Of a stretch of DNA of 64,000 nt, positions 52-57,067 are shown piece after piece. Below the pieces are notes generated by a model, which was not told the origin of the DNA, made no database searches, and saw nothing but the letters and a program-made list of their open reading frames with translations. A program made the translations under genes and the position numbers. Positions within the stretch are counted from its first letter, which is position 1, and every line of letters begins with the position of its first letter. The stretch lies in IMG/VR virus record IMGVR_UViG_3300031414_000005; one strand, 5' to 3'. The stretch comes from a virus (taxonomy: Duplodnaviria > Caudoviricetes).

Positions 52-591
52 ATGAAAAACGTTTCTGCGGTCAAGACCAAGCGTATTCGTCGTTACACAG
101 GAAGTGAAGCCGATCACCTCATCGCGAATGATGGGGTGGAGTTTTTCAATATATTCTCCGGCGGTAAAACCCGTTTGGGGCGACTCGCCACGCACTTCGC
201 CAACACCCCGATTGACCACCCCCGCTTTGGTTATTTCAAATCCCTGGAGGGGTTGTACTACTGGTTGATTGCCGAGGTCAAGGATGAGTCACTGCGTCGA
301 CTCGATGGCTGGGAAGCTAAGAAACACGGCCGTACATTACCGGCCGTGTATGTTGATAACTTAATCGAGCTGATGGACGAAGCAAACCGCCTCAAGGTTG
401 CGCAACACCCAGAGCTAAAAGAACTCTTACGCAACAGCACTTTGCCATTCAGACACTTCTATTACTACGGTAAACGCCCAGGTAAATATGTGGTGTATGA
501 ATCTGAGGAGGACTGGCTGTGCACTATCTACACTCGTATTCGAGAGGAGTTACATAATGAAACCGTTTCACCGGGAACTGACGGAGGCTGA
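52..591 (+). CDS. NADAR-like (T4 gp30.3/YbiA-like) ADP-ribosyl hydrolase family protein
   Basis: AGGAG SD; motifs LATHFANTP / FKSLEGLYYWL / GWEAKKHGR parallel the NADAR pattern LSNF..SxEG/H..AKxxGR (recognised by eye). Confidence 0.55.
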   Translation: MKNVSAVKTKRIRRYTGSEADHLIANDGVEFFNIFSGGKTRLGRLATHFANTPIDHPRFGYFKSLEGLYYWLIAEVKDESLRRLDGWEAKKHGRTLPAVYVDNLIELMDEANRLKVAQHPELKELLRNSTLPFRHFYYYGKRPGKYVVYESEEDWLCTIYTRIREELHNETVSPGTDGG

Positions 592-706
592 GCAGAGAGA
601 AATGCAAATGGTAAAGTGGATCGACCGAATTCTAAACCTGCTGCTGATCATGGCATTTGCTGTGCTCGGTTACGCCATCTATATTTACGAGCCACCGCTC
701 TGGTAA
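557..706 (+). CDS. small single-pass membrane protein (49 aa)
   Basis: GAGGAG SD before ATG 557; hydrophobic ILNLLLIMAFAVLGYAIYIY. Confidence 0.7.
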   Translation: MKPFHRELTEAEQREMQMVKWIDRILNLLLIMAFAVLGYAIYIYEPPLW

Positions 707-867
707 GTTCTGTAAAGAGTCATTGGCTCAAGCAGGAACCTGAGCTGAAGACTTTTGAGGAACTGGTTGCGGAATACAAAGCATTTGAGGCTGACTTTGA
801 AGCAACGATCATCACCCTCACATTGGTGGCATTCACAACGGTATTGGTCTATTGGGTTTTTGCTTAA
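616..867 (+). CDS. possible small protein with C-terminal membrane anchor; start uncertain
   Basis: 3' half reads as protein (LKTFEELVAEYKAFEADFEATIITLTLVAFTTVLVYWVFA) but has no clear SD/start. Confidence 0.35.
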   Translation: MDRPNSKPAADHGICCARLRHLYLRATALVSSVKSHWLKQEPELKTFEELVAEYKAFEADFEATIITLTLVAFTTVLVYWVFA

Positions 868-1003
868 TTATAGGACAAGAGACAACATCCTGTCGCAAGT
901 ATAATTGATTATAAACCTCTGGGCGGCACTTGTGTCCGTTAACACTCTAGGAAGCGCAACCATGAAATGGTTTGACCATTTATTTCATAGAGAGGAACCA
1001 ACC

Positions 1004-1654
1004 ATGTCTGACCCAAACCAGACCTCTTCCAATGCCACACCTACCACCTCTGCTGATGCAGCGCCTGTGATCGATACTCAAGCAGCGCCGGCAACCAGCA
1101 CTTCCAATGATCAACCAGTCGCTGATGTAGTGGCCCCGGCCGCTACGCCTGTTGTCGCTTCTGCGGAGCCTATCGGGCCTGTCCGTAGCGCCACTCCGGT
1201 GTCCACTGCGCAATTGCAAAGTGCGGCCCAGAAGCTCCAGCACGTCAGCGAAGGCGTGACCATTGCTGCTGCAAATGGCACTCTGCCAGATGCGATTGCC
1301 ACCCAGGCGACCGAGGTCGTCACGGAGGCAGCAGCCGCGGTTCAACAACTGGTTCAGGAAGAAGTAAAGGATGTGGGGGAGCAAGTGAAAGGTGAAGTGA
1401 TCGATGAGATCGACAAAGCAGTAAACCAGGTTGCAGAAAGTTCGAATACCCTGATGGATCGGCTCAAACTGATGCTGACGGAAGCGAACGACACCATCCA
1501 TGATGGTTGGGATGAAGCGGTGGAAATCGCTAACACCATGACCAAAGACGAAAAGGAGATGCCAGAGAAAGTTGCCCTGGTCTTCGGTACCGTCGGTCAT
1601 GAGGTTTCTGACAACTATCGCCGATTTGCTGCGTTCCTGAAAAAATACCTGTAA
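1004..1654 (+). CDS. hypothetical protein with Ala/Thr/Pro-rich N-terminus
   Basis: GAGGA SD before ATG 1004; biased codon usage; followed by terminator. Confidence 0.8.
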   Translation: MSDPNQTSSNATPTTSADAAPVIDTQAAPATSTSNDQPVADVVAPAATPVVASAEPIGPVRSATPVSTAQLQSAAQKLQHVSEGVTIAAANGTLPDAIATQATEVVTEAAAAVQQLVQEEVKDVGEQVKGEVIDEIDKAVNQVAESSNTLMDRLKLMLTEANDTIHDGWDEAVEIANTMTKDEKEMPEKVALVFGTVGHEVSDNYRRFAAFLKKYL

Positions 1655-1660
1655 ATATTT

Positions 1661-1685
1661 GGGGCTCCGCGAGGGGCCTCTTTTT
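1661..1685 (+). terminator. intrinsic terminator
   Basis: GGGGCTCC-GCGA-GGGGCCTC followed by TTTTT. Confidence 0.7.
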
Positions 1686-1705
1686 AAGCCTGCTGTGAGG
1701 ACCTT

Positions 1706-2206
1706 ATGAATCAAACAACGGTATACGAAAATGTCAAGGGTGTGTTAGCTGTCAGCCCCACCCAGTCTGACGACCCCATGCTCCAGACATTAATCACCGC
1801 TTTCAATTCACAAGTGGGAATTTGTGTAACGAACATCACCTATAACACCGACGTTGATGGCAAGCAAAAGGTGGTGTTTGGCATGCTCTGTAACGACATG
1901 GGGAACGAGCTGCTGCATGTCATCTATCGCGATATCCTGGAGTCATTGGGCCGCCTGGGTAACGTGGGGGAGAACCAGTATGTGCTGAACCCGCGCGACG
2001 TTCGGTTGTTGCACCGTCCAGATGTCCTGCATCGCCCGAGCGGTAACATGGTGTATGACTCTGTGATGCTGGAGTTCGTTAACCTGGATACCGCCGCGTT
2101 TAACATGATGTTTTCGTTAGTCCTCAGTGCCAACACCGAAGCGGTCGCTCGTTGGAAAGCCATCGACCAAATCAACGGCATGTTCAAGACCCCGAAAACT
2201 AAATAA
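1706..2206 (+). CDS. hypothetical protein
   Basis: GAGG SD, 166-aa ORF. Confidence 0.75.
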   Translation: MNQTTVYENVKGVLAVSPTQSDDPMLQTLITAFNSQVGICVTNITYNTDVDGKQKVVFGMLCNDMGNELLHVIYRDILESLGRLGNVGENQYVLNPRDVRLLHRPDVLHRPSGNMVYDSVMLEFVNLDTAAFNMMFSLVLSANTEAVARWKAIDQINGMFKTPKTK

Positions 2207-2287
2207 AAACATTATTTATCAATCCATTGAACCCAACACATGACTTGAGACACCCCGTCATCAAGCATGCATGATTAGGAGTCAACA

Positions 2288-2935
2288 ATGAACGCAGTAT
2301 TACGTTTAAGCAGTGTTCCGTCGAGTCAGACGCTCGGCAGTTTGTTTATCAATGCGCAATTGATCATCCACGATGAAACAGAAGGTCTTGTGGGTAAGTT
2401 TGCGGCTGACGGTTTCAGGGTTGCCAAGATCAAGGTGTTAGAAGCGGATGAAAATCCACCGAACCTCCCAACCACCCTGCCGGAAGTGGATCTGAATTAT
2501 CATGCTTATGTCCCGGCCACCCGGTTTGCTACCGATGGTACCAATCGCATCGTGGTGGTGCCGCTGAAAATCCGTGCCGACACGGCCCGCAGTCTGGTCA
2601 GCGTGCAAACCAACAGTTACAGTGAACTGGCGGTGATGGTGCGTCCATTGTTTATGGTCACACGTCGAAACAAGGCTGATTACAAACCCCTGGGCGAACC
2701 CACTTTCCATGATGTCGACTACGTGTATAAAAAGGAGTCAGACGACACGGACTACCAGGACGCGTTTAGGGACACCCAGCTTGTCCAGTTCGATGTTTTC
2801 GTGAAGAAGACCAATACGGACACGTTGGGTGATATCCTGTTCCCGGCCCAGGGCAACCTCAATCAAAATGGCGTAGCGGATGCCCCCGCTGTCAGTGCGA
2901 CCCACCCGGTGGAGCTTAACCCCACCAAGGAGTAA
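2288..2935 (+). CDS. hypothetical protein
   Basis: AGGAG SD, 215-aa ORF. Confidence 0.8.
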   Translation: MNAVLRLSSVPSSQTLGSLFINAQLIIHDETEGLVGKFAADGFRVAKIKVLEADENPPNLPTTLPEVDLNYHAYVPATRFATDGTNRIVVVPLKIRADTARSLVSVQTNSYSELAVMVRPLFMVTRRNKADYKPLGEPTFHDVDYVYKKESDDTDYQDAFRDTQLVQFDVFVKKTNTDTLGDILFPAQGNLNQNGVADAPAVSATHPVELNPTKE

Positions 2936-2937
2936 TT

Positions 2938-3252
2938 ATGCCCTTCACTGTGACGTTCTACGCTCACAATGATGACGGTGCTCCCCAGCTTCAAGGTGTC
3001 TGCAATTACGATTGCGATAACGGTCTGGATGTTCAGGCCGTTTTAAAAGACCTCAGTGATGAACTGTTGGAGAAAAACACCGAAGAGGGGTTTAGCCCGT
3101 CTAATGTTGTCACGGGTGATGTCCTGTCGTTTCACTACACAGTCGGCTTAGATAAAGACCTGAACCGTGTCATCAATTGGTTGATGAAAGTGTGTCATTG
3201 GCGACTGTATGGCTTTCACCAGGCAAAGCATCCTTATCCTTCGGACGACTAA
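2938..3252 (+). CDS. hypothetical protein
   Basis: AGGAG SD overlapping the upstream stop. Confidence 0.75.
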   Translation: MPFTVTFYAHNDDGAPQLQGVCNYDCDNGLDVQAVLKDLSDELLEKNTEEGFSPSNVVTGDVLSFHYTVGLDKDLNRVINWLMKVCHWRLYGFHQAKHPYPSDD

Positions 3253-3253
3253 C

Positions 3254-3718
3254 ATGCCAAGCTATTTCGCACTGTATGGACAAAACCGTATTATACTGGG
3301 CACTGATCGTGAACGTGGTCATGATCATCGTATCGCGGATCTGGTACCGTTGAAGAAAACCAGCCGGATTGTAACCTCAATTGAAAACAAAGATGCCCTG
3401 GCCCTGATCCGTCAGTTGCCTGAGTATTTCTTCATAACGAAGAAAGCACTGGATGCGTTGCGCATTGAGTTGATTGACGATGGTAAACCCACCCGGTCAT
3501 TACCGTTGCACAGTCAACGTACCGACAAGCACGATGCGCTGTTGATCACCTTAAAGGGAAACACCTGCCACCAAGTGTACACCATGACCAAGTCACAGTG
3601 GGACACCAAACGGTTCAATGACCACCTGGCGTTTCTCATTGATTACAGCGACGCGAAAAACGTGGCGATCAGCCTGGATGTGTTAATCACCCATGGCCCG
3701 CAGTATTACTTGAAGTAA
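3254..3718 (+). CDS. hypothetical protein
   Basis: ATG 1 nt after upstream TAA; operon packing. Confidence 0.7.
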   Translation: MPSYFALYGQNRIILGTDRERGHDHRIADLVPLKKTSRIVTSIENKDALALIRQLPEYFFITKKALDALRIELIDDGKPTRSLPLHSQRTDKHDALLITLKGNTCHQVYTMTKSQWDTKRFNDHLAFLIDYSDAKNVAISLDVLITHGPQYYLK

Positions 3719-3786
3719 GTACCACCAACCCCCGTGTGCGATGAGCCATTGTGCCGCCACACATTACAACCCAAGTGGAGTAAACC

Positions 3787-4188
3787 ATGAAACTGAACAC
3801 CATCAAAACTGTTAAAACCGATGCCCGTATTGTTTTCGTCGGTCCTGCCCCTTCCGAAGGCATTGGCTTCCGTGCAGTGAAACTGGCGGTGAAGAACGCA
3901 GACAGGGGCCTTGGTATCCTGCTCGACAACATCGCGAACGATGTATTGGAGTGTGACCACGAAGGCCGGGTCGATATCGACTACAGCACGTATATCTCTG
4001 CTGACGGACGCATTAGCCGAGATGCTGGTAACAACATGACATTTGTAAGTTTGCGTGCTAATAAAGAAGCACTTGAGCTTTATGGTAAAAACAAAGTCTT
4101 AAAACACATCGAATTTTTCATCGACCAACAGCCGGGTGATATTAAGATTGTCGGCTACCGTTTAATCGCAGAGGGCGGTTTACAATGA
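3787..4188 (+). CDS. hypothetical protein
   Basis: GGAG SD, 133 aa. Confidence 0.75.
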   Translation: MKLNTIKTVKTDARIVFVGPAPSEGIGFRAVKLAVKNADRGLGILLDNIANDVLECDHEGRVDIDYSTYISADGRISRDAGNNMTFVSLRANKEALELYGKNKVLKHIEFFIDQQPGDIKIVGYRLIAEGGLQ

Positions 4189-4685
4189 ATTTTGAATTGA
4201 TCACAGTTGACGGCCCGGAGCACAGTTACTTCCCTGTGTTCGCGGAGATGTACAAAGAGTTAACGCGTGGCCTGGAACCGATCTGGAAAAACGTGCGTCG
4301 GCATTTCTACACCTGGTCAGATCAAGACCTGCGTGATATCGCGGAAGTGCAGGCAGACGAACAAACCAGTCGTTGTCGTGTCTGTGTACTGCTGGGTGAC
4401 GGGATTCCAATCGGGTTCATCGAATACAGCATGCCGGTGGCCAACGTGCTACTGGCCATCGACAATATCTATGTACGTGAAGCCTACCGGAATCAAGGTG
4501 GGTTCAACTTCATGTATGAAGCGATTCTGTCAATCTGTCGGGAAAACGGGATTACGGATATTGAACTGGGTGCGACCGTGGGTACCCCGGCGATTGAGAT
4601 CTACGAACGTCTGGGGTTCAAACCGGTGTATGTGAAGTACCAGATCGCGATGAACGCACCAGAAGGGGACAGGCATGCCAAATAA
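4185..4685 (+). CDS. GNAT-family acetyltransferase
   Basis: IDNIYVREAYRNQGG (motif A, V...YRxxG) and AIEIYERLGF (motif B). Confidence 0.85.
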   Translation: MNFELITVDGPEHSYFPVFAEMYKELTRGLEPIWKNVRRHFYTWSDQDLRDIAEVQADEQTSRCRVCVLLGDGIPIGFIEYSMPVANVLLAIDNIYVREAYRNQGGFNFMYEAILSICRENGITDIELGATVGTPAIEIYERLGFKPVYVKYQIAMNAPEGDRHAK

Positions 4686-5112
4686 GGACAGCAAGGGAAA
4701 AGGGGTGTTCTTCCGCCGCATGACCATCCTCACCGCGGAGCAGTGCAAAGCGATTGGGGATCACGATGCATTCAGCCGAGTGCTGAAACGGAATTACCTG
4801 AAGGTAGAGAAAGGGGCGCTGGAGCCACTCGATTATAAGAAGCTGGTACCCCAGGAGGTGTTTCTGCGGTTTATCTCCACCGACCCGAACGCGGTGGTGT
4901 GCCGTATCGACGACCTGCGCTTCTTATCCAGTGGTGAGTTGATTGGACGGGTGTTGCCAGATGAAAGCAATTACCCGGGGGTGATGGAACGGTTGCTGCG
5001 TTTGCCCGAGGCGGTGTTCCGCTTTGAGCCCCGCATCATCGAGCGTTACGCCAAGACCCGACGTCGGCCGGTTACCCGCGAAGTCGTGACCTTCGATTTC
5101 GTGTACCTTTAA
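4675..5112 (+). CDS. prohead-protease-like protein, probably catalytically inactive
   Basis: Aligns by eye to the protease at 51717-52499 (GxVxP, FxxR, C-terminal TFDxV) but lacks the His and Ser motifs. Confidence 0.55.
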   Translation: MPNKDSKGKGVFFRRMTILTAEQCKAIGDHDAFSRVLKRNYLKVEKGALEPLDYKKLVPQEVFLRFISTDPNAVVCRIDDLRFLSSGELIGRVLPDESNYPGVMERLLRLPEAVFRFEPRIIERYAKTRRRPVTREVVTFDFVYL

Positions 5113-5119
5113 ATCCCAA

Positions 5120-5148
5120 GAGGGGCTGCTGCGGCGGCCTCTCTTTTT
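5120..5148 (+). terminator. intrinsic terminator
   Basis: GAGGGGCTGC-TGCG-GCGGCCTCTC + TTTTT. Confidence 0.75.
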
Positions 5149-5161
5149 CAGGAGGGTGTGT

Positions 5162-5545
5162 ATGCTCCAAGTGATTGGTCGTATCAAAACACAATTAGCC
5201 AAGCTTGACGGTGTTGAACGGGTTCGCGTCACGATTTATGACGACCGCATGCTCGTTACTGTTTTTCATCAGGAATACCTGACCAACCCGTTTAAAGCGT
5301 TAAAAGAGACGTTGCCGCGTTGTCAATTGACGCAACGCGTAACACCGCTCGGGCGACAGTGTATCAGTCAGTTTGCGATGAAATCCTATCCGTTTTTACA
5401 GACGGATGTAGCCCATCTAATAACTGTCTTTGTCGCTAACCACCCCATCAGACCTTATCCTGATGTTGTTATTCTGGAAGGTGAACATGATCACCGTTTT
5501 ACCGAACACCAATGTCCTGAAGTACTTCGACCAACACGACGTTGA
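5162..5545 (+). CDS. hypothetical protein
   Basis: GGAGG SD before ATG 5162. Confidence 0.7.
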   Translation: MLQVIGRIKTQLAKLDGVERVRVTIYDDRMLVTVFHQEYLTNPFKALKETLPRCQLTQRVTPLGRQCISQFAMKSYPFLQTDVAHLITVFVANHPIRPYPDVVILEGEHDHRFTEHQCPEVLRPTRR

Positions 5546-5966
5546 CCTGGCACATGGTTGTAACTGCATGACCACAATGGGTGCCGGTATTGCTAAGGGG
5601 TTGCGTGACCGCTGGCCTCAGGTATACCACGCCGACTGTCAAACCGTGAAAGGGGATCACACCAAGCTGGGTAAGTTTACCTATGCTGATGTGGGTAGTA
5701 AACGTATCTACAATTTGTATTCGCAGTACAAGTATGGTCGGGACAAGAAATACTTTGCCCCTCGTGCTTTCCAAATCGCGCTGCTACGGGTGTTTTTCGA
5801 CATGAGCATCCGTGAGCGTTACAGTCTCATCATCCCCTGGATTGGTACCTACAATGCCGGGGGTACCCGTGAAGAGATTATGCGCATTCTGGAAGACACG
5901 GTCCCGACTGAGATCAACTTGTTTATTGGGGAACTGGATTATGCCAATCACCAAAAACGGGTTTGA
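5487..5966 (+). CDS. macrodomain (Appr-1''-p processing / ADP-ribose-binding) protein
   Basis: LAHGCNCMTTMGAGIAK signature plus IYNLYSQY and IPWIGTYNAGG, typical of T4 Tk.4-like phage macrodomains. Confidence 0.9.
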   Translation: MITVLPNTNVLKYFDQHDVDLAHGCNCMTTMGAGIAKGLRDRWPQVYHADCQTVKGDHTKLGKFTYADVGSKRIYNLYSQYKYGRDKKYFAPRAFQIALLRVFFDMSIRERYSLIIPWIGTYNAGGTREEIMRILEDTVPTEINLFIGELDYANHQKRV

Positions 5967-6210
5967 ATGGTTTACCCCGGATGAAATCTGGCCAGTAATT
6001 CTGGCCGCACCGCAAGTGCCTATCCGCATCACCACCGCTGGATGGGAGGACGGTAAAGAGGTAAACCTTCGCACCAAAGGCTTAAACAACCAGGGGTCCA
6101 TGGGTTACTACCTGATTCACAACACCCTGGACATGGAACCGTACTGGCGGTTTATCACCGAACCCCCAACCCCACCCTTTGTGCTGCGCGAGCAACTGGG
6201 TTTTTCATAG
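5941..6210 (+). CDS. hypothetical protein, tandem paralogue 1
   Basis: MPITKNGFEWFTPDE..RITTAG..PYWR; similar to the next gene. Confidence 0.75.
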   Translation: MPITKNGFEWFTPDEIWPVILAAPQVPIRITTAGWEDGKEVNLRTKGLNNQGSMGYYLIHNTLDMEPYWRFITEPPTPPFVLREQLGFS

Positions 6211-6220
6211 AGGAACCCGC

Positions 6221-6481
6221 ATGCCCATCCATAAAGACGGTGTGGACTGGTTGACACCCGAAGAAGCCCACCAAACGTTGCTGGCACAGAACGGTAAACT
6301 GGTTCGTATCACAACCGAGGGGCTGACCTACGACCCGGACGAGATCTGTATTGTCACGGTGTGTGGTTACAACGGTGGTGGCACAACTGAGCAGTTTTTG
6401 CAGAACTCCCCGTACTGGCGTGTCGATACTTTTGGTCCGCCTTCCTATGTCCTTAATGAGAGCATAGACTTCCAATGTTAA
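6221..6481 (+). CDS. hypothetical protein, tandem paralogue 2
   Basis: GAGGA SD; MPIHKDGVDWLTPEE..RITTEG..PYWR. Confidence 0.75.
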   Translation: MPIHKDGVDWLTPEEAHQTLLAQNGKLVRITTEGLTYDPDEICIVTVCGYNGGGTTEQFLQNSPYWRVDTFGPPSYVLNESIDFQC

Positions 6482-6765
6482 ACATCGAAATTCCTGAGCA
6501 CCTGGAGCGGTTGTTAAAGCACCGCTCTATTCGACGCTCCTGGCAGTTCTCCCGGTATCGCCAGATGTGGTTGACCCCCAACCAGGTGATGGCGTATCTC
6601 CAACACCCCGGGAATAAAGAGCGGGTTGTCTGCACCATCAGCAATGAAAACCTATATAACCCCCTTGATAAGACACCCATCCTTATTGAGTTCGATTCCG
6701 ACAAACACACCTACAAGTGGCTGCGTGAGCAACTTGAGGTTTCAACACACTGGTGGTTTACGTAA
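6475..6765 (+). CDS. hypothetical protein, possible diverged paralogue 3
   Basis: WLTPNQ and LREQL motifs shared weakly with the previous two genes. Confidence 0.65.
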   Translation: MLNIEIPEHLERLLKHRSIRRSWQFSRYRQMWLTPNQVMAYLQHPGNKERVVCTISNENLYNPLDKTPILIEFDSDKHTYKWLREQLEVSTHWWFT

Positions 6766-7337
6766 TGAAGAAACCCAGGAAGCTGTACGAACGTCACGGA
6801 CGACGTTGGTTATCCCCGGGCCCCTCACTGACAGCAGTCGGGTGGTCAGTGGTGGAAAAGGACATCAATTATCCGCATGCGTGCCTCGGCATCTACAACT
6901 ACGGTGAACAAGTCCGGTTGCATTCCGGTAACAACACTGTAAAAGGGATGCGCGAATACATGGAGAAAATCGTCTCCTTGCGCCGCAACATCACCGCGTT
7001 CCTGACGGAACTGGAATACGCCTGCCACATCGACGAACCCCGACAGATCACCAGCCGTATCTGGCTGAATGAACAGTTGGGATTAAACCCGCGTTATACC
7101 GGGTCTGTCGCGTACTCCATCAACCGGGACAAATACCGGTTTGAGATGGCGGATTGTACGACCAAAATTGTGTTTGAAGGCTCACTGTGTTCTGACAACG
7201 CCAAGCGTAAGAAAGACATCCGTAAGCTGGCTGTGATTGTTACCGTAATAAATACCCTGATTGCTGAAGTCGATAAACTGATCGACCTTGGCTTGTGCTC
7301 TGACCAACCTCATAAACTGGATACCCTTTCTAAATGA
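6765..7337 (+). CDS. hypothetical protein
   Basis: TAATG stop/start overlap. Confidence 0.7.
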   Translation: MKKPRKLYERHGRRWLSPGPSLTAVGWSVVEKDINYPHACLGIYNYGEQVRLHSGNNTVKGMREYMEKIVSLRRNITAFLTELEYACHIDEPRQITSRIWLNEQLGLNPRYTGSVAYSINRDKYRFEMADCTTKIVFEGSLCSDNAKRKKDIRKLAVIVTVINTLIAEVDKLIDLGLCSDQPHKLDTLSK

Positions 7338-7696
7338 AACGTAAAACCCTGAACGCATTCTTTGACAACCTGAAAAAGCTGGAAATGTCTCGCCTGATTC
7401 GTGACAACAAAGATTACACCCTGGGCAACAACATGAAGGGTGACGGTGTGCATGCCGATATCGTGCGTCTGGTTGCGGAGCTGCGCGAGTTCGCTGAGAA
7501 GCACCTGACCAATGGCACTGACCTTGGTGAAGTGATGGCTGAAGCCGCAAACCGTAAGTTGCAAATCCTGGACCACCTGAAGAGCAACCTTGATATGTCC
7601 ACCAACACGGTGACCTATCGCCTGGAAACCCGCAAAGGCAAGTTTGTGTACTGGGTGAAAGATATGAGCATGAAACCTGCGCTGGAAGTGGCGTAA
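7334..7696 (+). CDS. hypothetical protein
   Basis: ATG overlaps upstream TAA; strong codon bias. Confidence 0.8.
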   Translation: MKRKTLNAFFDNLKKLEMSRLIRDNKDYTLGNNMKGDGVHADIVRLVAELREFAEKHLTNGTDLGEVMAEAANRKLQILDHLKSNLDMSTNTVTYRLETRKGKFVYWVKDMSMKPALEVA

Positions 7697-8127
7697 TGGA
7701 GCTGCTCTGGCTGACTGTTGACAGTGGTGCGAGCTATGCTCCTGAAATCACCGCAATGATGAAGGCCCTGCGCACCGAAGAGAATGTCATGACGAACACC
7801 AAAAAGGTGGAGCGTGCGAAACCCTATCATCAGGAGTTTCGTGACCGTGACATGTGCATTCTGCTGGCAATGGAAAAGGGTGATGTCGCTGGCATGATTT
7901 CTTTTACCCCCGGCCTGATGGGGATCATCTATCGGCTGTATGTCAAACCGGTGTATCGCCGTCGTGGGGTGGGTGACCTGCTGATGCAGAGCACGAAAGA
8001 GTATATGAAGCGCCGCGGGAGTATTGAGTTCACCGTGAACACCATCCCCGCTAATGAACCGGCAATTGCACTGTACAAGAAGTACGGGTTGACGCCGGAG
8101 TACCTGTCGCTACGCGGCAAAGTTTAA
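7696..8127 (+). CDS. GNAT-family acetyltransferase
   Basis: LYVKPVYRRRGVGDLLM and NEPAIALYKKYGL. Confidence 0.9.
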   Translation: MELLWLTVDSGASYAPEITAMMKALRTEENVMTNTKKVERAKPYHQEFRDRDMCILLAMEKGDVAGMISFTPGLMGIIYRLYVKPVYRRRGVGDLLMQSTKEYMKRRGSIEFTVNTIPANEPAIALYKKYGLTPEYLSLRGKV

Positions 8128-8145
8128 CAGGAAAGGAAAAATAAG

Positions 8146-8619
8146 ATGTCTACGACAATCATCAATTATGATGCAGTTGTGCAAGAACTTATTAAAGGTA
8201 TACAGATCAACGATAATCGTGACATGGCGCCGCGTTTGGGATTGGATAAAACCGACTGGCGTTATTACTCGGAGTTGCGCACCGTGGGGTTCAGTGTCCC
8301 CAGACAGTTAGGTGCTTCCGGTTGGTTGGTCAATCAGTTCATCCGTCATCCATTAGGCGAAGCGTTGGTGGTGGTGGCGAACAGACCGATGCGCCAGCTC
8401 TTTCTGACACGCCTGGATGAACGGGATGCGTTCAAACACAGTCGACCCCATGTGATTGTTGCGGACAAGGCCAACCTGGCCAACCTCCACCACACCTACC
8501 GTTATGTCTATATCGAAGATGCGTCCCATGTGTTTGCTAACCAAATCAAACACGCCCCTTTCCACCGTGCATTAGCACCGCATGTCACCGAGAACGTGGT
8601 GATCGTGCGGGTCAACTAA
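8146..8619 (+). CDS. degenerate P-loop (terminase/SF2-like) fold protein
   Basis: FSVPRQLGAS resembles terminase Walker A PRQxGKT/S with K>A; YVYIEDAS is Walker-B-like. Confidence 0.45.
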   Translation: MSTTIINYDAVVQELIKGIQINDNRDMAPRLGLDKTDWRYYSELRTVGFSVPRQLGASGWLVNQFIRHPLGEALVVVANRPMRQLFLTRLDERDAFKHSRPHVIVADKANLANLHHTYRYVYIEDASHVFANQIKHAPFHRALAPHVTENVVIVRVN

Positions 8620-8622
8620 ACC

Positions 8623-8659
8623 ATGGCCCTTCGGGGCCATATCCTTTTCTTTCTTTTTT
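8623..8659 (+). terminator. intrinsic terminator
   Basis: ATGGCCC-TTCG-GGGCCAT then a T-rich tract. Confidence 0.75.
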
Positions 8660-8670
8660 GGACTGTTATC

Positions 8671-9804
8671 ATGTCAAAAACTATTCTTACCCCCGAGCAC
8701 CTCAATTCCCTGATTATCAAAGAAGAGTATGTTGAGAACACCGTGGGTGGCAAGGTCTGGTTAAGCTGCTATCTCTGGGTGGCCCCGACACACGCAATTG
8801 TGGGTGAACCGTGCAGTGCAATGTACCCGGAAACCAGCGACCCGGCAAAAGCGCGTCAGGTGGCCCGTAAACGTGCGTTTGATCAACTGTGGGCGTTGGA
8901 AGCCTACCGTTTGATGGTCAACGAACACCGCGAGTCCAATCACTCAGTAAGCGCCCTGGAAGAACGTATCCGTCGGATTGAAGTCGCATTACAGATGCCG
9001 GGTGCAGTGCTGACCTATGCAGAAAAGCTGGATGCGGCCATGCAAGATACACCCCCGACCGCCGTAACCCCACCGGAAACCCCGGCAAACGGACCGGGTG
9101 TACTGACCACCCGCGAACTCACCCCGGTTAGCGAACTCACCCCCGAGATTTCTCGTTACCTGGTGCGGCTGGAAGATGAAGTCACCAATATCTGCGGTGC
9201 CGTGATGAAACTCAAACTGTATGCCGCAGGTCCCGTGACTGAAGACCTCATGGGTCACTTCAGTACCGAGTTCCAGGAACAACTGCGTATTGAAGCTAAC
9301 GCCCCGGGGTTTGATGCCGACAGTTTTGATGTGTATGCGTTCTGCCGTAACCTGGAGGTTGCTGGTATCCGGGTGGAAGCCGATATCCTGAACCGCAGCA
9401 ATACCGCCTGGGTTGACAGCATGACCATGGAGAAAGTCACGGCGGGTGACACCCCTGACGATGGCGCCGCCCCGCAGTCAACAATTGAGCCCGTTATTGT
9501 GGGCGATGGCCTGTTGCAAGGTTTCCGGGTGACCGAATACCTGGAAGAGTTCGAGCAGGCGAAATCGGACATCGAGAAGTCCCTGTCCCAGCGTGCCATG
9601 TTATCTGTGCGGTTTGGTATTGACTATGCGCATGATGAAGAAGGCCGGAAGATCTATTGGGAACTGGATGAGCTGAAAAACCGGTTTGATAATGCACTCA
9701 GCAATTACAACTTTGCGGTGGCCAACCCCAGCGAAGAGATCAGCGACTTCCTGGTCGAGGTCTTTGCATTGCCGAAAGAAAACTTCAAGGTAACGTTGCA
9801 TTGA
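8671..9804 (+). CDS. protein with N-terminal N4 gp49/Sf6 gp66-family domain and long unknown extension
   Basis: IVGEPCSAMYPETSDPAKARQVARKRAFDQLWALEAYRL matches GESAC.SPENFD.EIG..IAR.NA...IW.LEGY. Confidence 0.7.
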   Translation: MSKTILTPEHLNSLIIKEEYVENTVGGKVWLSCYLWVAPTHAIVGEPCSAMYPETSDPAKARQVARKRAFDQLWALEAYRLMVNEHRESNHSVSALEERIRRIEVALQMPGAVLTYAEKLDAAMQDTPPTAVTPPETPANGPGVLTTRELTPVSELTPEISRYLVRLEDEVTNICGAVMKLKLYAAGPVTEDLMGHFSTEFQEQLRIEANAPGFDADSFDVYAFCRNLEVAGIRVEADILNRSNTAWVDSMTMEKVTAGDTPDDGAAPQSTIEPVIVGDGLLQGFRVTEYLEEFEQAKSDIEKSLSQRAMLSVRFGIDYAHDEEGRKIYWELDELKNRFDNALSNYNFAVANPSEEISDFLVEVFALPKENFKVTLH

Positions 9805-9808
9805 TAAT

Positions 9809-9840
9809 TTAGAATGCAGGTCAGTTTAAGTCTATATAAC
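9809..9840 (+). promoter_or_regulatory. phage (early-type) promoter, bipartite motif copy 1
   Basis: TTAGAATGCAG-N12-CTATATAAC; TATATTAC-like core resembles the phiKZ early promoter. Confidence 0.7.
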
Positions 9841-9889
9841 CAATATGAATACAGAGCAATAGTGCTTTGTACCTATTGGAGATATCCTC

Positions 9890-10291
9890 ATGAAACTGAC
9901 CAAACTGCGCTTTGTCCTGTCTAAAGAGTTCATCGAACTGTGTGCTGCAAATATCGACCGTGGTATGGCGACGGTTATCCGCCTGGCTGAACGTCGTTAT
10001 GTCTTCGCTAACCCGAAGGCCACTGAAGACATCGATATCGATGAGTCTGATGTGAACCGCGCGCTGAGCATCGCGAAGAACGAAGACGCACGTTTTGACC
10101 GCCTGGCCAACGTGTACAGCTGGATTCGTAAACAGTCTAGCAAAGCGGCTTTAACCTGGAGTAACTATCGTGCATACATCACTGCTAACGCATTGGAAAA
10201 ACTGTGGGTCGTCACCGGTGTCTATAAAGAAGCCGCTGATGTCGAAGTCGAGTTTAACCATATCGTTGGCATGGTCGCTGATGCAAAGTAA
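9890..10291 (+). CDS. hypothetical protein (first gene behind the early-type promoter)
   Basis: GGAG SD; highly biased codons. Confidence 0.85.
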   Translation: MKLTKLRFVLSKEFIELCAANIDRGMATVIRLAERRYVFANPKATEDIDIDESDVNRALSIAKNEDARFDRLANVYSWIRKQSSKAALTWSNYRAYITANALEKLWVVTGVYKEAADVEVEFNHIVGMVADAK

Positions 10292-10458
10292 TCCATAGCG
10301 GGAGGCTACCAGTAGGTATGCCTCCCGACTATTCACCTGATTTATTTTTTAACGAAAAAGCTAAATCAGATGCGTAGTTTATAAAAACAACAGGCGTTAC
10401 CTGTGCTTATGAATTCCATCTTCTCATCGATCTACACACTCAAAAAGGTTTTATTACA

Positions 10459-10638
10459 ATGTCCACGACCAAATCACACGTTAAAGATGCCAAGAAATTT
10501 GCTAACCTGTCCCGTGCGCGTCAAGTTGAAGTCCTGATGGGCGTACGCCTGACTTCGGTTCAACGCGACCTCATTGAATACCTGGCTGATGGAGATCACC
10601 TTGCAGCTATACACCGTTCAAATCGCCCGGTATCGTAA
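10459..10638 (+). CDS. small hypothetical protein, 59 aa (absent from ORF track)
   Basis: AAGG SD; MSTTKSHVKDAKKFANLSRARQVEVLMGVRLTSVQRDLIEYLADGDHLAAIHRSNRPVS; biased codons. Confidence 0.65.
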   Translation: MSTTKSHVKDAKKFANLSRARQVEVLMGVRLTSVQRDLIEYLADGDHLAAIHRSNRPVS

Positions 10639-10966
10639 AGCATTGGCCCTGGGTGTCCCGTTTGTGGACACCTCCATCAAAACCGGGAAGTCAGAATTCA
10701 TGCCGACCTGGGACATGGTGATGGGGTACAAGCAAGGTACTGTCAGTGAAGAACGTTACACCGAGATGTATTACGACCTGATGCGCCAACGCTATCGAGC
10801 CAATCGCCAATGGTGGTTGGCTTTTTTACGCGATCAGCCCAGCGCAGCCATTGGGTGCTTCTGTACACCGGGTGCGTTCTGTCACCGTTTATTGCTCGTA
10901 GACATCTTCAGGAAAATCTGTGAGCGCAACGATATTCCTTTTGAATACGCAGGTGAATTAACATGA
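10589..10966 (+). CDS. DUF488-like protein
   Basis: PTWDMVMGYK..YTEMYYDLMR..IGCFCTPGAFCHRLLL resembles DUF488 P.W.L...y...Y..eL / LxC...C-H-R. Confidence 0.55.
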   Translation: MEITLQLYTVQIARYRKALALGVPFVDTSIKTGKSEFMPTWDMVMGYKQGTVSEERYTEMYYDLMRQRYRANRQWWLAFLRDQPSAAIGCFCTPGAFCHRLLLVDIFRKICERNDIPFEYAGELT

Positions 10967-11433
10967 TCCTGGATTACAACACCGCCTGGGACCGAATAGA
11001 GGACAGCACCCTCAAGGGTGAAACCGTCAAGTTTGTGGCCTCAAAAATCCGACCCGGCGAGTTCTACCTCCACTCGGAACCCGTGCACGGCGACAACCCC
11101 TGCCATGCTCTGGTGATTCTGAAAACCAACCACCACCTCTACGCTATCTGGGTGACCTCACCTCCGGACAGACGTACCGACACCCGTATCCTGCAACGCG
11201 CATTGATTGAGTTGTTGCAGCTGCCGTATGGTCAGATCAACGTGTTCAATAACCTGCGGGTTGACCGCCGGACACGCTACCATATTTGCAATGGGTATCG
11301 GTCGTTGTATTTCACCGACCTGGTCAAAGGCCGGTTCTCCCAGAAACAACTGGTTATCCCAAATAAACATGAAGCCTTCCTGGCGATGTTCCAGCAACAG
11401 GCCAAAGACTTCATTATTCAACAGACTTACTGA
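10963..11433 (+). CDS. hypothetical protein
   Basis: Overlaps the upstream stop, 156 aa. Confidence 0.75.
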   Translation: MILDYNTAWDRIEDSTLKGETVKFVASKIRPGEFYLHSEPVHGDNPCHALVILKTNHHLYAIWVTSPPDRRTDTRILQRALIELLQLPYGQINVFNNLRVDRRTRYHICNGYRSLYFTDLVKGRFSQKQLVIPNKHEAFLAMFQQQAKDFIIQQTY

Positions 11434-11444
11434 GGTACATTCCA

Positions 11445-11738
11445 ATGGTAAAAGAAGTCAAACACGGGTTCACGTTTGATGATGCTGGCTCACAGGCAAT
11501 CGGGGCGTTCTACACCGATATTGAAATAGCGCTGCGGGTCAAAGGCACCAACCTGACCCAGATCTGCCGACAGATCATCAAGCGGCATTTAAAGCAGACC
11601 CGTAACCCCGAATTGATCATCACCCTGGAAGCCCTCCAGAAGAAATACGCCCTGGTACCGGAGTTACGGGAACGGATCGCGGAATACCGGGGATTGGTGT
11701 CAGGGGAATTAGAAGTGGTGCGGCTGGTACGTTCGTAA
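11445..11738 (+). CDS. hypothetical protein, possible Ner/Nlp-like HTH
   Basis: GAGG SD; DIEIALRVKGTNLTQICRQ loosely resembles Ner DIIAALRKKGTSLAALSR. Confidence 0.6.
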   Translation: MVKEVKHGFTFDDAGSQAIGAFYTDIEIALRVKGTNLTQICRQIIKRHLKQTRNPELIITLEALQKKYALVPELRERIAEYRGLVSGELEVVRLVRS

Positions 11739-11823
11739 ATAAATACTTACCATCAGGTATTATCTGACAGCTGTAGATGCTGCCGCGCAATAGTCAACAT
11801 TGATTTAAGCTATCATCATTTTT

Positions 11824-11859
11824 GGATCGGGTTCGCTGTATGTCCCGATCCATCTTTTT
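11824..11859 (+). terminator. hairpin + T tract (terminator or 5' domain of the ncRNA)
   Basis: GGATCGGG-12 nt-CCCGATCC then ATCTTTTT. Confidence 0.5.
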
Positions 11860-11867
11860 ATTCCGTA

Positions 11868-12016
11868 TTTGGTTGTGTGGTAAAAGAGGTTCTCCGCCTC
11901 AAGACTTGCCTGTCGCCACCACACGACCAAACCCCTTTGGCGCTTTTGGTTCACGTACCTCAAATGCGTAAGCTTCCTTCCTGGTGGAATCTCTGTCACG
12001 CCAAAAGCGCCAACCA
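11868..12016 (+). ncRNA. candidate structured non-coding RNA with two multibranched domains, the second tRNA-like
   Basis: 14-bp stem 11868-11881/11918-11931 and 13-bp stem 11937-11949/12001-12013, each enclosing two hairpins; G-U pairs favour the + strand; no credible ORF. Confidence 0.55.
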
Positions 12017-12072
12017 CTATGCTGTGTGAAGTCTTTGCCGGAATGACGGCAGTCCATAATAGGAAATTTCCT

Positions 12073-12098
12073 GGAGAGCTTCGGCTCTCCTCTTTTTT
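12073..12098 (+). terminator. intrinsic terminator
   Basis: GGAGAGC-TTCG-GCTCTCC + TCTTTTTT. Confidence 0.85.
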
Positions 12099-12173
12099 GC
12101 ATTTCTTTTTTTTTGTCCTCATCATGTGACTTCGGTCGGTAACACAGAGAACCAGTTGTAGGGGACATCAAAA

Positions 12174-12338
12174 ATGAAACTCAAAAGGCTGTTCTGGATC
12201 AGGTTTCACTTAGTCCTCGTGTGGGTGTTGGTGGTGCCCATGCATTGTTCGTTGGGGGCGACCTGGTCAACCATGAAGTACAGGAGACAACAACACGAAA
12301 GGCATTTACGCTTTACTCAGGATGGCTATGAACAATAA
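12174..12338 (+). CDS. small putative membrane protein, 54 aa (absent from ORF track)
   Basis: AGGGGA SD; MKLKRLFWIRFHLVLVWVLVVPMHCSLGATWSTMKYRRQQHERHLRFTQDGYEQ. Confidence 0.5.
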   Translation: MKLKRLFWIRFHLVLVWVLVVPMHCSLGATWSTMKYRRQQHERHLRFTQDGYEQ

Positions 12339-12340
12339 CT

Positions 12341-12368
12341 AAAAAAGGGGAGAGCCGAAGCTCTCCCC
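12341..12368 (-). terminator. intrinsic terminator for the minus-strand head/helicase operon
   Basis: Minus strand GGGGAGAGC-TTCG-GCTCTCCCC + TTTTTT. Confidence 0.85.
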
Positions 12369-12380
12369 AATTAAGGCGGT

Positions 12381-13412: not shown

Positions 13413-15506
13413 TCACCACCCCATTGACGCAGGCAGTTTACGTTTAACGGTTTCAAGTGTCCGCAGACTGTCGTAGTCTGCTTCACGCATCAGTTCCAAC
13501 TCTTCCAGGTCTTCAAACGACCAGGCCGAGCGTTTTGAGAAGTGAATCTCGTCAATGGCTTCCAACCCCATGTCTGGCATGTGACGGGCACCCATGATCA
13601 TCTGGACCTGCTCACGGCTCCATTCCATGATGTCGCGGGAACGGGTCGAGATATTCGGCTTATTACCGGTATCCAACTGCGCCAGCCAGATCCACACCGG
13701 TTGGGTTTGTCCCACACGGAACACCCGGGCAATGGTTTGTTTGATCTCGTAGTCACGGAACGGGGAGTTAATCATGAAAATGGTGTTGGCCATCAACATC
13801 GGTACCCCGGTCGAGAGTGAGTCAAAGGTGGCATTGCAGGGGTTCAGGTTCGGGTCATTACGGAACAACTCAATTAAGGCGTTGAAGTTCTTGTTGGTGT
13901 CACCGTAGATCTCAAGCGGGTTATACCCCTCTTGTTTCAAATGCACGGTCACCTGACGCAGGACTTCCACGTAGGACGTAAAGACCAGGGTCTTGGCTTC
14001 GGAGTTGTCGATGTACTTGGCGAGGTCAAGGTGCTCCACCATATCCACATGACAGTTGATACGTTCACGCCCCAACACGCGGCCCAGACACTCACCCCGG
14101 ATTTTGAGGTCAACGTATTTCACCACCGACTTCACATCCCGGAATTGTTTCTTCTCCTCGTTGTTCAGCACCGTGTTGATTTCTTTCTCTTCAAACTCGT
14201 TGCAGTATTTCGATTGCGCCGACATGGTTGCCCCGTCAAAGCCTAAGCGGATAAACATCGCCACATACGTCTTGTACGTTGCCAGGTCTTCCAGGGCTTT
14301 GGTTGCACCCTTCTTCTTCATCACCGCTTCATAACGATCGACACACAAATCGTAGAAACTGCGGAACTCGGCTTTGTGCAAAGTGTAATACTGGATACGC
14401 TCTGCAATAAACGCCTGCATCAAGGCACCAATCGAGTCCAGGGTATATTTGTCCCCGTTTGGCATTTTCACGGGTACCGACACAATGTCGGGATCTTTAC
14501 CCAATCCCTGTAATCGCTCGATCTTGTATTTCACTCGCCCCATACGGTTGGCCAGGATGTCATTGGCGCGTTTGGCGTTGCGTCCCCAGATCTTTTTAAA
14601 GCGCTCGGCCACACTCGGGGTAAAGAAGGGGTCGATGCACATAAAGATAGGGATGGACTCTGACCCCAGGGCTTTGATCGGGGTACCGGACATAAAGAGG
14701 ATGTCCTGGCAGTCTGAGGTCTGACAGAACTCAATCAGGTTCTGGGTCTGTTGGGCTTCCAATCGGGTGAAGTTATGGGACTCGTCAATGACGATGTTAA
14801 ACCCGTCCTTCTTGAACTTTGGCAGCATGGCTAACAACTGCTCCAGGCGTTCATAGTGGAAGATGTGCCAACGGGCATCCGGATCCCACGGCTGGTCGTT
14901 ATCGGCCACCCACACCGACTGGGTCTTGCGAAAGCCTTTGTCCATGTCCGAGAGCCAGGATTTCTGGATCACGTTCTTGGGGCACACGATCACCGTGCGT
15001 TTGTAATCCAGCAATACTGACAGGCCGTAACCAATCAATGTCTTACCGGAACCGGCTTTCCCGTCCAACAGCAACCCTTTCAGACGATGGCTGGGTTTGG
15101 CTTTCTGGTAATACTTGAAGAACCCGGTCTGGTCTTCGAACCACTGGACGTTCATTTCACGGGCCAGTTGCTGGTAATTAAAGTCCAGGCTCAGGGTGGA
15201 TTCAATGCTACGCAGCCAGGTTTCCGACTCCAGCAGTTTCAGTAACTGGATCAGACTGCGGCGGTTTGTAATGATCGACGTATCATCAATCATCTTACTG
15301 ATAATGTAATGCAGTTCGAGGGCAAAGAAACTGGGTAAGGTGAAACGATTACGCCCAATAGACGTAAACATGTATTTACCGACTACCGAGGTTTCCCAAA
15401 TGTGGGTGATGTCGCGCACGAACCAATCAGTGGAGATTCCGGTGACTTCAATGTTCTGTCCCCGCTCGGTCACTGTGATCATGCCAATCAGGCGTTTAAG
15501 GTTCAT
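13413..15506 (-). CDS. SNF2/SF2-family helicase
   Basis: Walker A GKAGSGKT, DESH box, SGTP, FVFTSY-like motif IV (TLVFTSY), QTIARVFRVGQ motif VI. Confidence 0.9.
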   Translation of the reverse strand: MNLKRLIGMITVTERGQNIEVTGISTDWFVRDITHIWETSVVGKYMFTSIGRNRFTLPSFFALELHYIISKMIDDTSIITNRRSLIQLLKLLESETWLRSIESTLSLDFNYQQLAREMNVQWFEDQTGFFKYYQKAKPSHRLKGLLLDGKAGSGKTLIGYGLSVLLDYKRTVIVCPKNVIQKSWLSDMDKGFRKTQSVWVADNDQPWDPDARWHIFHYERLEQLLAMLPKFKKDGFNIVIDESHNFTRLEAQQTQNLIEFCQTSDCQDILFMSGTPIKALGSESIPIFMCIDPFFTPSVAERFKKIWGRNAKRANDILANRMGRVKYKIERLQGLGKDPDIVSVPVKMPNGDKYTLDSIGALMQAFIAERIQYYTLHKAEFRSFYDLCVDRYEAVMKKKGATKALEDLATYKTYVAMFIRLGFDGATMSAQSKYCNEFEEKEINTVLNNEEKKQFRDVKSVVKYVDLKIRGECLGRVLGRERINCHVDMVEHLDLAKYIDNSEAKTLVFTSYVEVLRQVTVHLKQEGYNPLEIYGDTNKNFNALIELFRNDPNLNPCNATFDSLSTGVPMLMANTIFMINSPFRDYEIKQTIARVFRVGQTQPVWIWLAQLDTGNKPNISTRSRDIMEWSREQVQMIMGARHMPDMGLEAIDEIHFSKRSAWSFEDLEELELMREADYDSLRTLETVKRKLPASMGW

Positions 15507-15557
15507 AGGTGGGGTCGCAGCCTTTAGAAGAAAGAAAAAGTTTTTACAGTCAGAGAA

Positions 15558-15589
15558 TTAGATTGCAGAAGCCGCAAAACCTATATCAC
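15558..15589 (+). promoter_or_regulatory. phage promoter, bipartite motif copy 2
   Basis: TTAGATTGCAG-N12-CTATATCAC. Confidence 0.7.
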
Positions 15590-15691
15590 CATGATGACAA
15601 GCAATAGAAGCAACAATTTTTATCTCTTTGAGGAATTAAAATTAACGCCATTCTGGCACAACACAACGAACTCGCTAAGAAGGAATAACCC

Positions 15692-18819: not shown

Positions 18820-18826
18820 ACGCAAT

Positions 18827-18858
18827 TTAGATTGCAGTGTGGTTGAGGTCTATATTAC
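18827..18858 (+). promoter_or_regulatory. phage promoter, bipartite motif copy 3
   Basis: TTAGATTGCAG-N12-CTATATTAC. Confidence 0.75.
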
Positions 18859-18896
18859 CCATGTGAATAGGAAACGTAGTTCTCTTAGGAGCCATA

Positions 18897-57041: not shown

Positions 57042-57067
57042 AAGAGGAGAGCCATTGGCTCTCCTCT
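57040..57067 (-). terminator. terminator for the tail tube/sheath operon
   Basis: Minus strand AGAGGAGAGCC-AAT-GGCTCTCCTCT + TTT. Confidence 0.75.

Follow-up and report, generated by a model that had tools for sequence, protein, structure and literature searches.

We analysed a 64,000-nucleotide (nt) stretch of viral DNA (the window). It corresponds to positions 136800-200799, reverse strand, of an IMG/VR virus record that is 232,948 bp long and has terminal repeats. To judge from its sequence, the source genome is a divergent chimallivirus-like (nucleus-forming-type) jumbo phage of ~233 kb. In the window, plus-strand genes span 52-11738 and a convergent minus-strand operon runs from 12381. 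The gap between them (11739-12380) holds a structured RNA at 11868-12016, flanked by two intrinsic terminators and placed at the end of an early accessory operon. An earlier note, made from the sequence alone, had proposed a novel non-coding RNA (ncRNA) with two multibranched domains at this site, the second of them a mimic of transfer RNA (tRNA). The two-domain ncRNA is borne out by its fold, by covariation and by recovery of the same fold in the divergent relative L004; the tRNA mimicry is not. We are highly confident that this is a real, conserved structured RNA.

The plus strand is predicted to fold into two tandem domains

RNAfold gave the plus strand of 11868-12016 a folding energy of -57.5 kcal/mol (z = -5.4), which none of 200 dinucleotide-shuffled sequences equalled. 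For the minus strand of the same interval, z was only -2.3. In the predicted architecture (11868-12013, plus strand), two three-way-junction domains stand in tandem, and a 14-bp stem closes each of them (P1 and P2; Table 1). L004 alone folds into the same two-domain architecture (z = -5.2).

All of the helices listed in the earlier note are present, at the positions it gave or no more than 1-2 nt away. We also agree that there are no canonical D or TpsiC arms, as no T-loop or D-arm occurs in the fold. The acceptor-like stem with discriminator base that had been described for domain 2 exists as a helix, but it is 14 bp long rather than 12. Because RNAfold extends P2 to 14 bp, A12013 is paired with U11937 and is no free discriminator.

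Compensatory changes support the fold

Relatives of the locus were reached through the 97-amino-acid (aa) protein encoded upstream of the RNA, in three clusters at 91, 87 and 77% identity. Ten loci from JGI and Logan assemblies yielded eight distinct versions of the RNA core. Most lie near the window (L115 is the window's own locus), L003 is intermediate and L004 is clearly divergent. RNAalifold returned 77 pairs over 11800-12105, and 17 of the 77 carry double-sided changes, located in the upstream terminator T1, P1, P2 and a domain 1 hairpin.

In the core alignment of the eight variants, 11 pairs show double changes, compared with 2.1 +/- 1.2 in shuffled alignments (0 of 500 reached 11) and 0-2 when partners were slid. 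Paired cells make up 99.2% of the alignment, compared with 37-48% with slid partners. P1 has double changes in four pairs and single changes in two while remaining 100% paired, P2 has double changes in six pairs, found in both L003 and L004, and the domain 1 hairpin has one A-U to G-C change. Three double changes in L003 are independent of L004, and at least two lineages acquired compensatory changes. The alignment also contains ~40 G-U cells and 3 unpaired cells. On the opposite strand each of these G-U pairs would become an A-C mismatch, so the structure under selection is that of the plus-strand RNA, the strand that the earlier note had read from its G-U pairs. Folding energy against dinucleotide-shuffled controls and base changes in homologues both came out in favour of the RNA that had been proposed.

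Exposed segments are invariant while the stems drift

Three exposed loops (UUCUCCG, UUGCCU and CCUCAAAU) are invariant, as are four other exposed segments: the UCCUGGUGGAA element, the C4 linker, the CUGUCACG junction strand and the AUGCUGUGUG tail. The GAGG of domain 1 and the CCUC of the domain 2 loop, which the earlier note had suggested might pair with each other (kissing or switch), are likewise invariant across the variants, so covariation carries no signal for that pairing. The junction strands J1/2 and J2/3 differ in both sequence and length between lineages. Drifting stems combined with invariant loops suggest recognition by a macromolecule, not by a small molecule. The tail, at which the window reads ACCACU and L004 UCCUCA, may be a processing site or a seed, and the palindrome next to T2 may form a mini-hairpin or be a candidate protein-binding site.

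Table 1. Features at and around the structured RNA. Positions are those of the window unless noted; identity compares the window with L004.
Feature	Position	Strand	Description	Identity
Flanking genes				55% and 73%
Block after the 97-aa gene	11739-11770	+	Conserved, just past the stop codon of that gene	91%
Spacer after the block				35-50%
T1	11824-11862	+	8-bp hairpin and U-run; stem kept in RNAalifold, 5 pairs changed on both sides in L004	
Domain 1	11868-11931	+	P1 11868-11881 / 11918-11931, 14 bp with U-G pairs; three-way junction; same minimum-free-energy fold in window and L004	75%
Domain 1 hairpin	11886-11900	+	Invariant loop UUCUCCG	
Domain 1 hairpin	11903-11914	+	Invariant loop UUGCCU	
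Linker	11932-11936	+	Single-stranded, C-rich, CCCCU / CCCCC; four C invariant in 8/8 variants	
Domain 2	11937-12013	+	P2 11937-11950 / 12000-12013, 14 bp; three-way junction; same minimum-free-energy fold in window and L004	67%
Domain 2 hairpin	11953-11969	+	Loop CCUCAAA; invariant CCUCAAAU	
Domain 2 hairpin	11978-11989	+	Invariant UCCUGGUGGAA	
Domain 2 3' junction strand		+	Invariant CUGUCACG	
Tail	12014-12035	+	Single-stranded; CCACU (CCA 12014-12016, window lineage only), then invariant AUGCUGUGUG-AGUCUU	
P4 hairpin	12036-12051	+	UGCCG/CGGCA in window, UUACCG/CGGUAA in L004; one G-C to A-U double change	
Palindrome	12061-12072	strand-neutral	Perfect 12 bp, AGGAAATTTCCT, abuts T2; half-sites AGGAA/UUCCU kept in L004	
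Flank before T2				94%
T2	12073-12099	+	Strong intrinsic terminator; 7-bp G+C stem, UUCG loop (hairpin 12073-12090), U6 run	100%
Leader, with hairpin	12114-12167	+	UGUCCUC (12114-12120) pairs with GGGGACA (12161-12167) in the folds of both lineages	81%
54-aa gene	12174-12338	+	Small membrane protein; basic N-terminus, one hydrophobic segment	78%
T3	12347-12368	both	Bidirectional terminator, common with the convergent minus-strand helicase operon	
Octamer ATTCTATG	26165, 60115	-	Copies in the window	
Octamer ATTCTATG	-3690, 82960, 111999, 136182		Extended coordinates of G000	

The invariant CCTGGTGG at 11980-11987, in domain 2, matches seven of the eight bases of the E. coli Chi octamer, a likeness that is probably coincidental. 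We also tried a hammerhead-like reading of domain 2 (CUGGUGG..GAAAC..GUC) and rejected it because of differences at two invariant core positions and the lack of a match to any Rfam ribozyme model.

The structured region does not encode a protein

The earlier note had seen no credible open reading frame (ORF) here. A 106-aa ATG ORF does exist on the minus strand (11805-12125), and gene callers annotate minus-strand ORFs of 74-120 aa in relatives (L002 600-962; L003 4361-4657; L026/L030/L031 1861-2157). However, the ORF is not conserved and is broken in L004. Compared with the window, L004 has indels of 3, 4, 1 and 4 nt within the two domains, and its minus strand contains only unrelated fragments of 50-69 aa in different frames. 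The same indels disrupt plus-strand ORFs of 49-50 aa. The minus-strand product had no match in PHROG or Pfam. These data show that the region does not code for protein and that the minus-strand call across the RNA is most likely an annotation artefact, so that the finding corrects a gene-caller prediction. Stability above shuffles, compensatory substitutions and the absence of a conserved ORF together mark a structured ncRNA.

The RNA family appears confined to one phage lineage

At E <= 10, Rfam 15 returned nothing on the core of the window, L115 or L004, and only terminator-driven noise outside it. We built a covariance model (R1) from the core alignment, which recovered the known copy in its own genome at 186 bits. 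R1 matched nothing in 80 helicase-syntenic loci (1.6 Mb), nor anything in 50 chimallivirus-like records searched over their whole length, of which 37 are at least 90% complete. Domain 2 pattern scans of prokaryote genome contigs and viral contigs were also without a match. An exact-pattern metagenome scan with a 21-base domain 1 pattern hit 21 soil and peat contigs (L005-L025), which we rejected as false positives because they represent two unrelated protein-coding gene families. Those contigs illustrate how conservation of coding sequence can make a short RNA motif reappear. Because R1 and the exact-pattern scans gave either nothing or false positives, the family appears confined to one phage lineage as far as can be seen, and it is a new structured RNA family that is absent from Rfam.

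To our knowledge, very few ncRNAs are known in nucleus-forming-type jumbo phages, and none has an assigned function. Small RNAs (sRNAs) of phiKZ and 201phi2-1 have been mapped, one of them conserved upstream of a tail gene (PMC11512511), and phiKZ ncRNAs of unknown role were noted in a recent review (PMC13282480). Like the chimallivirus sRNAs (sRNA005 / sRNA-gp182; PMC11512511), the present RNA is a short structured phage non-coding transcript between phage terminators. Unlike them, it follows an accessory operon and shows no sequence likeness; theirs derive from 5' untranslated regions and sit ahead of a conserved tail gene.

Other known systems share parts of this arrangement. Tandem glycine riboswitches also have two adjacent three-way junctions with P1 closing stems, followed by a terminator and an ORF, but the present RNA has no Rfam match, its junctions vary while its loops are invariant, and a long spacer and an extra hairpin precede its terminator. 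Conserved junction or pocket nucleotides and a match to a known class, as expected of a riboswitch, were both absent (J1/2 and J2/3 vary; no Rfam class). Like processive antitermination RNAs (HK022 putL/putR, EAR), the present RNA is structured, has two helical modules and stands ahead of an intrinsic terminator and a gene, here in a phage, but neither sequence nor model similarity to them was found, and put RNAs are simple stem-loops rather than three-way junctions. Type I toxin-antitoxin systems (hok/sok, tisB/istR-1) resemble the locus in having a small hydrophobic ORF, a ribosome-binding site (RBS) locked in a structured leader and an adjoining ncRNA. In contrast to their antisense RNAs, the present RNA is co-oriented with the ORF and lies upstream of it.

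Environmental RNA libraries contain the region

Sequencing runs holding the stretch came from 13 studies, covering phyllosphere, soil, viral and fermentation metagenomes and three isolate-labelled organisms. Three of these runs are RNA libraries, which we mapped on 11739-12380. A phyllosphere metatranscriptome contained one whole contig, X18, of 233 nt (11785-12018), a second phyllosphere study gave a metatranscriptome contig of 172 nt (11795-11967), and a wastewater transcriptome contig (11983-12129) spans domain 2, T2 and the leader. None of the contigs in the three RNA libraries lay on 11739-11784 or on the 54-aa ORF. With a narrower query, the two phyllosphere runs contained 55% and 40% of its words. 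Both phyllosphere contigs begin within 10 nt of each other, 15-25 nt past the conserved block at 11739-11770, and X18 ends 2 nt beyond the CCA. These environmental RNA libraries give modest support for transcription of the RNA. T1 resembles a terminator for the early operon that precedes it, yet the metatranscriptome contigs X18 and X19 include it.

An early bipartite promoter, TTAGAWTGCAG-N12-CTATATNACC, occurs at 9806-9846, 15556-15596 and 18824-18864, and none of these copies precedes the RNA. The octamer ATTCTATG has six copies in the genome, each of them intergenic and 37-292 nt ahead of a gene on the same strand (Table 1), and is a candidate late promoter core (non-virion RNA polymerase, TATG-type). 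Enrichment of CCATCAGGT in the promoter search was traced to a coding-sequence effect and discarded. With no known promoter before the RNA, its transcript would start either at the early promoter at 9806, with read-through of T1, or at a promoter that escaped recognition, the candidate being the block at 11739-11770; this block could also be a processing signal of the RNA unit.

A conserved terminator and a selected small gene follow the RNA

T2 is 100% identical in all relatives, including L004. Its hairpin belongs to a terminator family, GGAGAGC-UUCG-GCUCUCC, that is found at 12073-12090 and 12347-12368 and at 89859 and 159923 in the extended coordinates of G000, with looser variants at 57047, 87611, 99597, 150043 and 154628. 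Sequence-conserved terminators have been reported for phiKZ and 201phi2-1.

Downstream of T2, the leader hairpin is predicted to sequester the Shine-Dalgarno sequence of the 54-aa ORF; its sequences are invariant, so it gives no covariation signal. Near relatives differ in the 54-aa gene at synonymous codons only. L004 shows 15 synonymous and 13 non-synonymous codon differences, with frame, start and stop kept. The gene is under purifying selection. Neither a set of 1.84 billion representative proteins nor the phage collection described below contained a homologue of its product, which could serve as a lysis, exclusion or toxin-like peptide under tight control.

A lineage-specific RNA acting through its exposed segments is tentatively favoured

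We tentatively favour a lineage-specific structured ncRNA, a stable species that would act through its invariant exposed segments and form the core of a ~320-nt unit (~11785-12099). With somewhat more reserve, we lean towards a trans-acting or ribonucleoprotein (RNP) mode rather than a cis-regulatory one. Under this proposal, the RNA would arise from its own promoter near 11740-11780 or be cut from read-through transcripts of the early operon, might be cleaved near 12018, and would accumulate as a stable species. The only role of the two long stems would be that of a scaffold. Docking sites would be the apical, CU-rich loops UUCUCCG, CCUCAAAU and UCCUGGUGGAA, the C4 linker, CUGUCACG and the tail AUGCUGUGUG. 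The partner could be a protein or a purine-rich RNA, either Shine-Dalgarno-like or a terminator 5' arm such as GGAGAGC. The P4 hairpin, an AU-rich stretch and the T2 end resemble the 3' module of chaperone-bound sRNAs.

A more specific version of the trans-acting RNA is quite improbable in our estimate: an early-expressed, lineage-specific counter-defence or host-takeover RNP or decoy, built as a stable two-domain scaffold trimmed near 12016-12018, whose invariant CU-rich loops would trap a host factor such as an RNA- or tRNA-targeting immune nuclease or the translation apparatus. If true, it would be an RNA-based anti-defence mode that is not known from nucleus-forming phages.

Several results weigh against a stable, partner-binding RNA. 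No partner or target emerged from complementarity and protein-partner searches: the RNA is no more complementary to the phage genome than expected by chance (18 matches, 21 expected), and its duplex with the 54-aa ORF mRNA, where an antitoxin would stand out, scored -80.7 compared with -80.5 +/- 6.1 for shuffled sequences. The region upstream of the RNA contains no early motif, no late-like ATTCTATG motif and no sigma-70-like site. The RNA contigs are low-depth assemblies (depth 2-4), carrying no strand or end information and no silent-stretch control, and one of them crosses 12018. The covariation covers effectively three lineages, so that a formal R-scape-type test is not yet possible. Finally, the order of a strong terminator and then a tightly controlled gene fits a cis role equally well.

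Such a cis role is the main competitor, although we consider it rather unlikely. Here the two domains would be the part of a long 5' leader that acts as a sensor or modifies RNA polymerase and sets read-through of T2, possibly also T1, into the 54-aa gene, either by processive antitermination of the HK022 put or EAR kind or by protein- or RNA-dependent attenuation. All relatives keep the order of structured domains, T2, RBS-sequestering hairpin and selected ORF, identity across T2 and its flank stays at 94-100% even in L004, the ~75 nt that separate T2 from the ORF contain no recognised promoter, and one RNA contig spans domain 2, T2 and the leader. Antitermination has also been proposed for the jumbo phage 201phi2-1 (PMC11512511). 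Pairing of GUUCUCC in the domain 1 loop with GGAGAGC, the 5' arm of T2 (7 bp, one G-U), could compete with the terminator. This is the sole terminator/antiterminator pairing candidate; both of its sides are invariant, which precludes a covariation test, and a 7-bp match within 200 nt is not rare. Against a leader stand the lack of a match to any Rfam riboswitch or leader model, the variation of the junction nucleotides that usually form a ligand pocket, the 57 nt and additional hairpin between domain 2 and T2, and the end of the best RNA contig at 12018, well short of T2. A passive 3'-end architecture is improbable. It would make the hairpin stack at the convergent operon boundary a back-up terminator or a 3'-exonuclease barrier that stabilises the mRNA of the early operon, with no specific partner, which suits a site at the 3' end of a long plus-strand operon facing a minus-strand one, with T1, T2 and T3 all terminator-like and other intergenic regions of the genome folding with z below -5. 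However, the domains are multibranched and lack U-tracts, T1 already lies upstream of them, and a passive barrier would not constrain loop and junction sequences while its stems drift.

The remaining alternatives concern the nature of the element itself. In the tRNA-like proposal of the earlier note, domain 2 ends in A-CCA and would be aminoacylated, serve as a decoy for anticodon nucleases or read opal codons; phage tRNAs that counter tRNA-targeting defences are known (T5, PARIS literature). As in tRNAs, tRNA-like structures (TLS), the tRNA-like domain of transfer-messenger RNA (tmRNA) and YrlA-type Y RNAs, there are 7-nt hairpin loops and, in the window lineage, a terminal helix of 12-14 bp followed by CCA. 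An invariant 7-nt loop contains UCA, and X18 stops just past the CCA. The resemblance ends there: the junctions are three-way rather than four-way, the supposed discriminator is base-paired, and the A-CCA end is lineage-specific, being U-CCU in L004. The T-loop consensus (UUCRANY, U54-A58) is not matched, since in the single GGUUC-like hairpin the loop is UUCUCCG and C stands in place of A58. Because the register of the 7-nt loop differs between lineages (CCUCAAA in the window, CUCAAAU in L004), the UCA read as an anticodon is not a fixed feature, and the loop has C33 instead of U33. ARAGORN found no tRNA genes anywhere in the 233-kb genome, the window included, and its relaxed mitochondrial mode gave a noise-level call, one of 9 spurious ones in 500 nt, which we discarded. 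The Rfam tRNA, tmRNA, TLS and Y-RNA models had no match over 11868-12016 at E <= 10 in the window or L004. Neither tRNA genes nor a CCA-adding enzyme or Ro/TROVE protein were found in the genome. We are therefore very sure that the RNA is not a tRNA mimic, and regard an aminoacylated or anticodon-bearing domain 2 as very improbable. Even less credible is that the site holds no such RNA element at all and is instead a real minus-strand gene for the 106-aa protein, a set of DNA-level inverted repeats (origin, cruciform or recombination site) or a phi29-type pRNA. Long inverted repeats can be DNA signals, and callers do annotate the minus-strand ORF in several relatives. On the other side, that ORF falls into fragments in L004 and matches no family, the G-U pairs would turn into A-C mismatches on the opposite strand and are weak in DNA, the minus-strand fold reaches only z = -2.3 and RNA libraries contain the region. 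The pRNA-like role suggested in the earlier note found no backing: phi29 pRNA is also a phage RNA of ~120-170 nt built around a three-way junction, but the present RNA has no Rfam pRNA match, the intermolecular loop-loop complementarity by which pRNA is defined was not identified, and the RNA was not found in the 50 other chimallivirus-like genomes searched. A pRNA is typical of small podoviruses with protein-primed replication; the present genome is chimallivirus-like by its SNF2 helicase.

Because jumbo phages of the nucleus-forming type keep their DNA out of reach of host defences, interactions at the RNA level matter unusually much for them. A lineage-specific RNA acting through invariant loops would be of interest in this setting, since its neighbours in the early accessory region include other candidate counter-defence genes and since it comes from plant-surface, soil and viral metagenomes. 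It offers a compact target of ~150 nt in which scaffold stems are separate from invariant loops, and it suits the question of trans-acting decoys or RNPs versus cis control of termination by the unusual phage RNA polymerases. Its importance is limited by its narrow distribution.

Neighbouring genes and other structured sequence

The accessory genes upstream of the RNA sit behind an early-type promoter and fit an early host-takeover or counter-defence block. Two of them (8623-9804 and 10574-10966) carry Phage_gp49_66 (PF13876, annotated in the L003 and L004 homologues) and DUF488-N3a (PF22751, E = 4.5e-7), respectively. The 97-aa protein is predicted to be a generic four-helix bundle (pLDDT 67), and its model had no fold match at E <= 0.001.

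On the minus strand, the SNF2 helicase gene (13413-15506) encodes a protein with 37-41% identity to homologues in phiKZ-like phages of Erwinia, Proteus, Pseudomonas and others. When we queried a phage collection of 50,697 records at the DNA and protein levels with the region and four neighbouring proteins, only the helicase matched, again at 37-41% identity. Viral-contig scans with the 97-aa, 342-aa and helicase proteins gave no match. In a collection of 5.8 billion proteins, helicase identity falls from 100% to 43% with nothing between, and this gap places the window phage in an isolated lineage.

The intergenic stretch at 10292-10441, between the genes for a 133-aa protein and DUF488-N3a, is also strongly structured (z ~ -7.6 on the plus strand and -5.5 on the minus strand; 20 shuffles). 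It holds a G+C hairpin with a U-run and small ORFs that some callers annotate.

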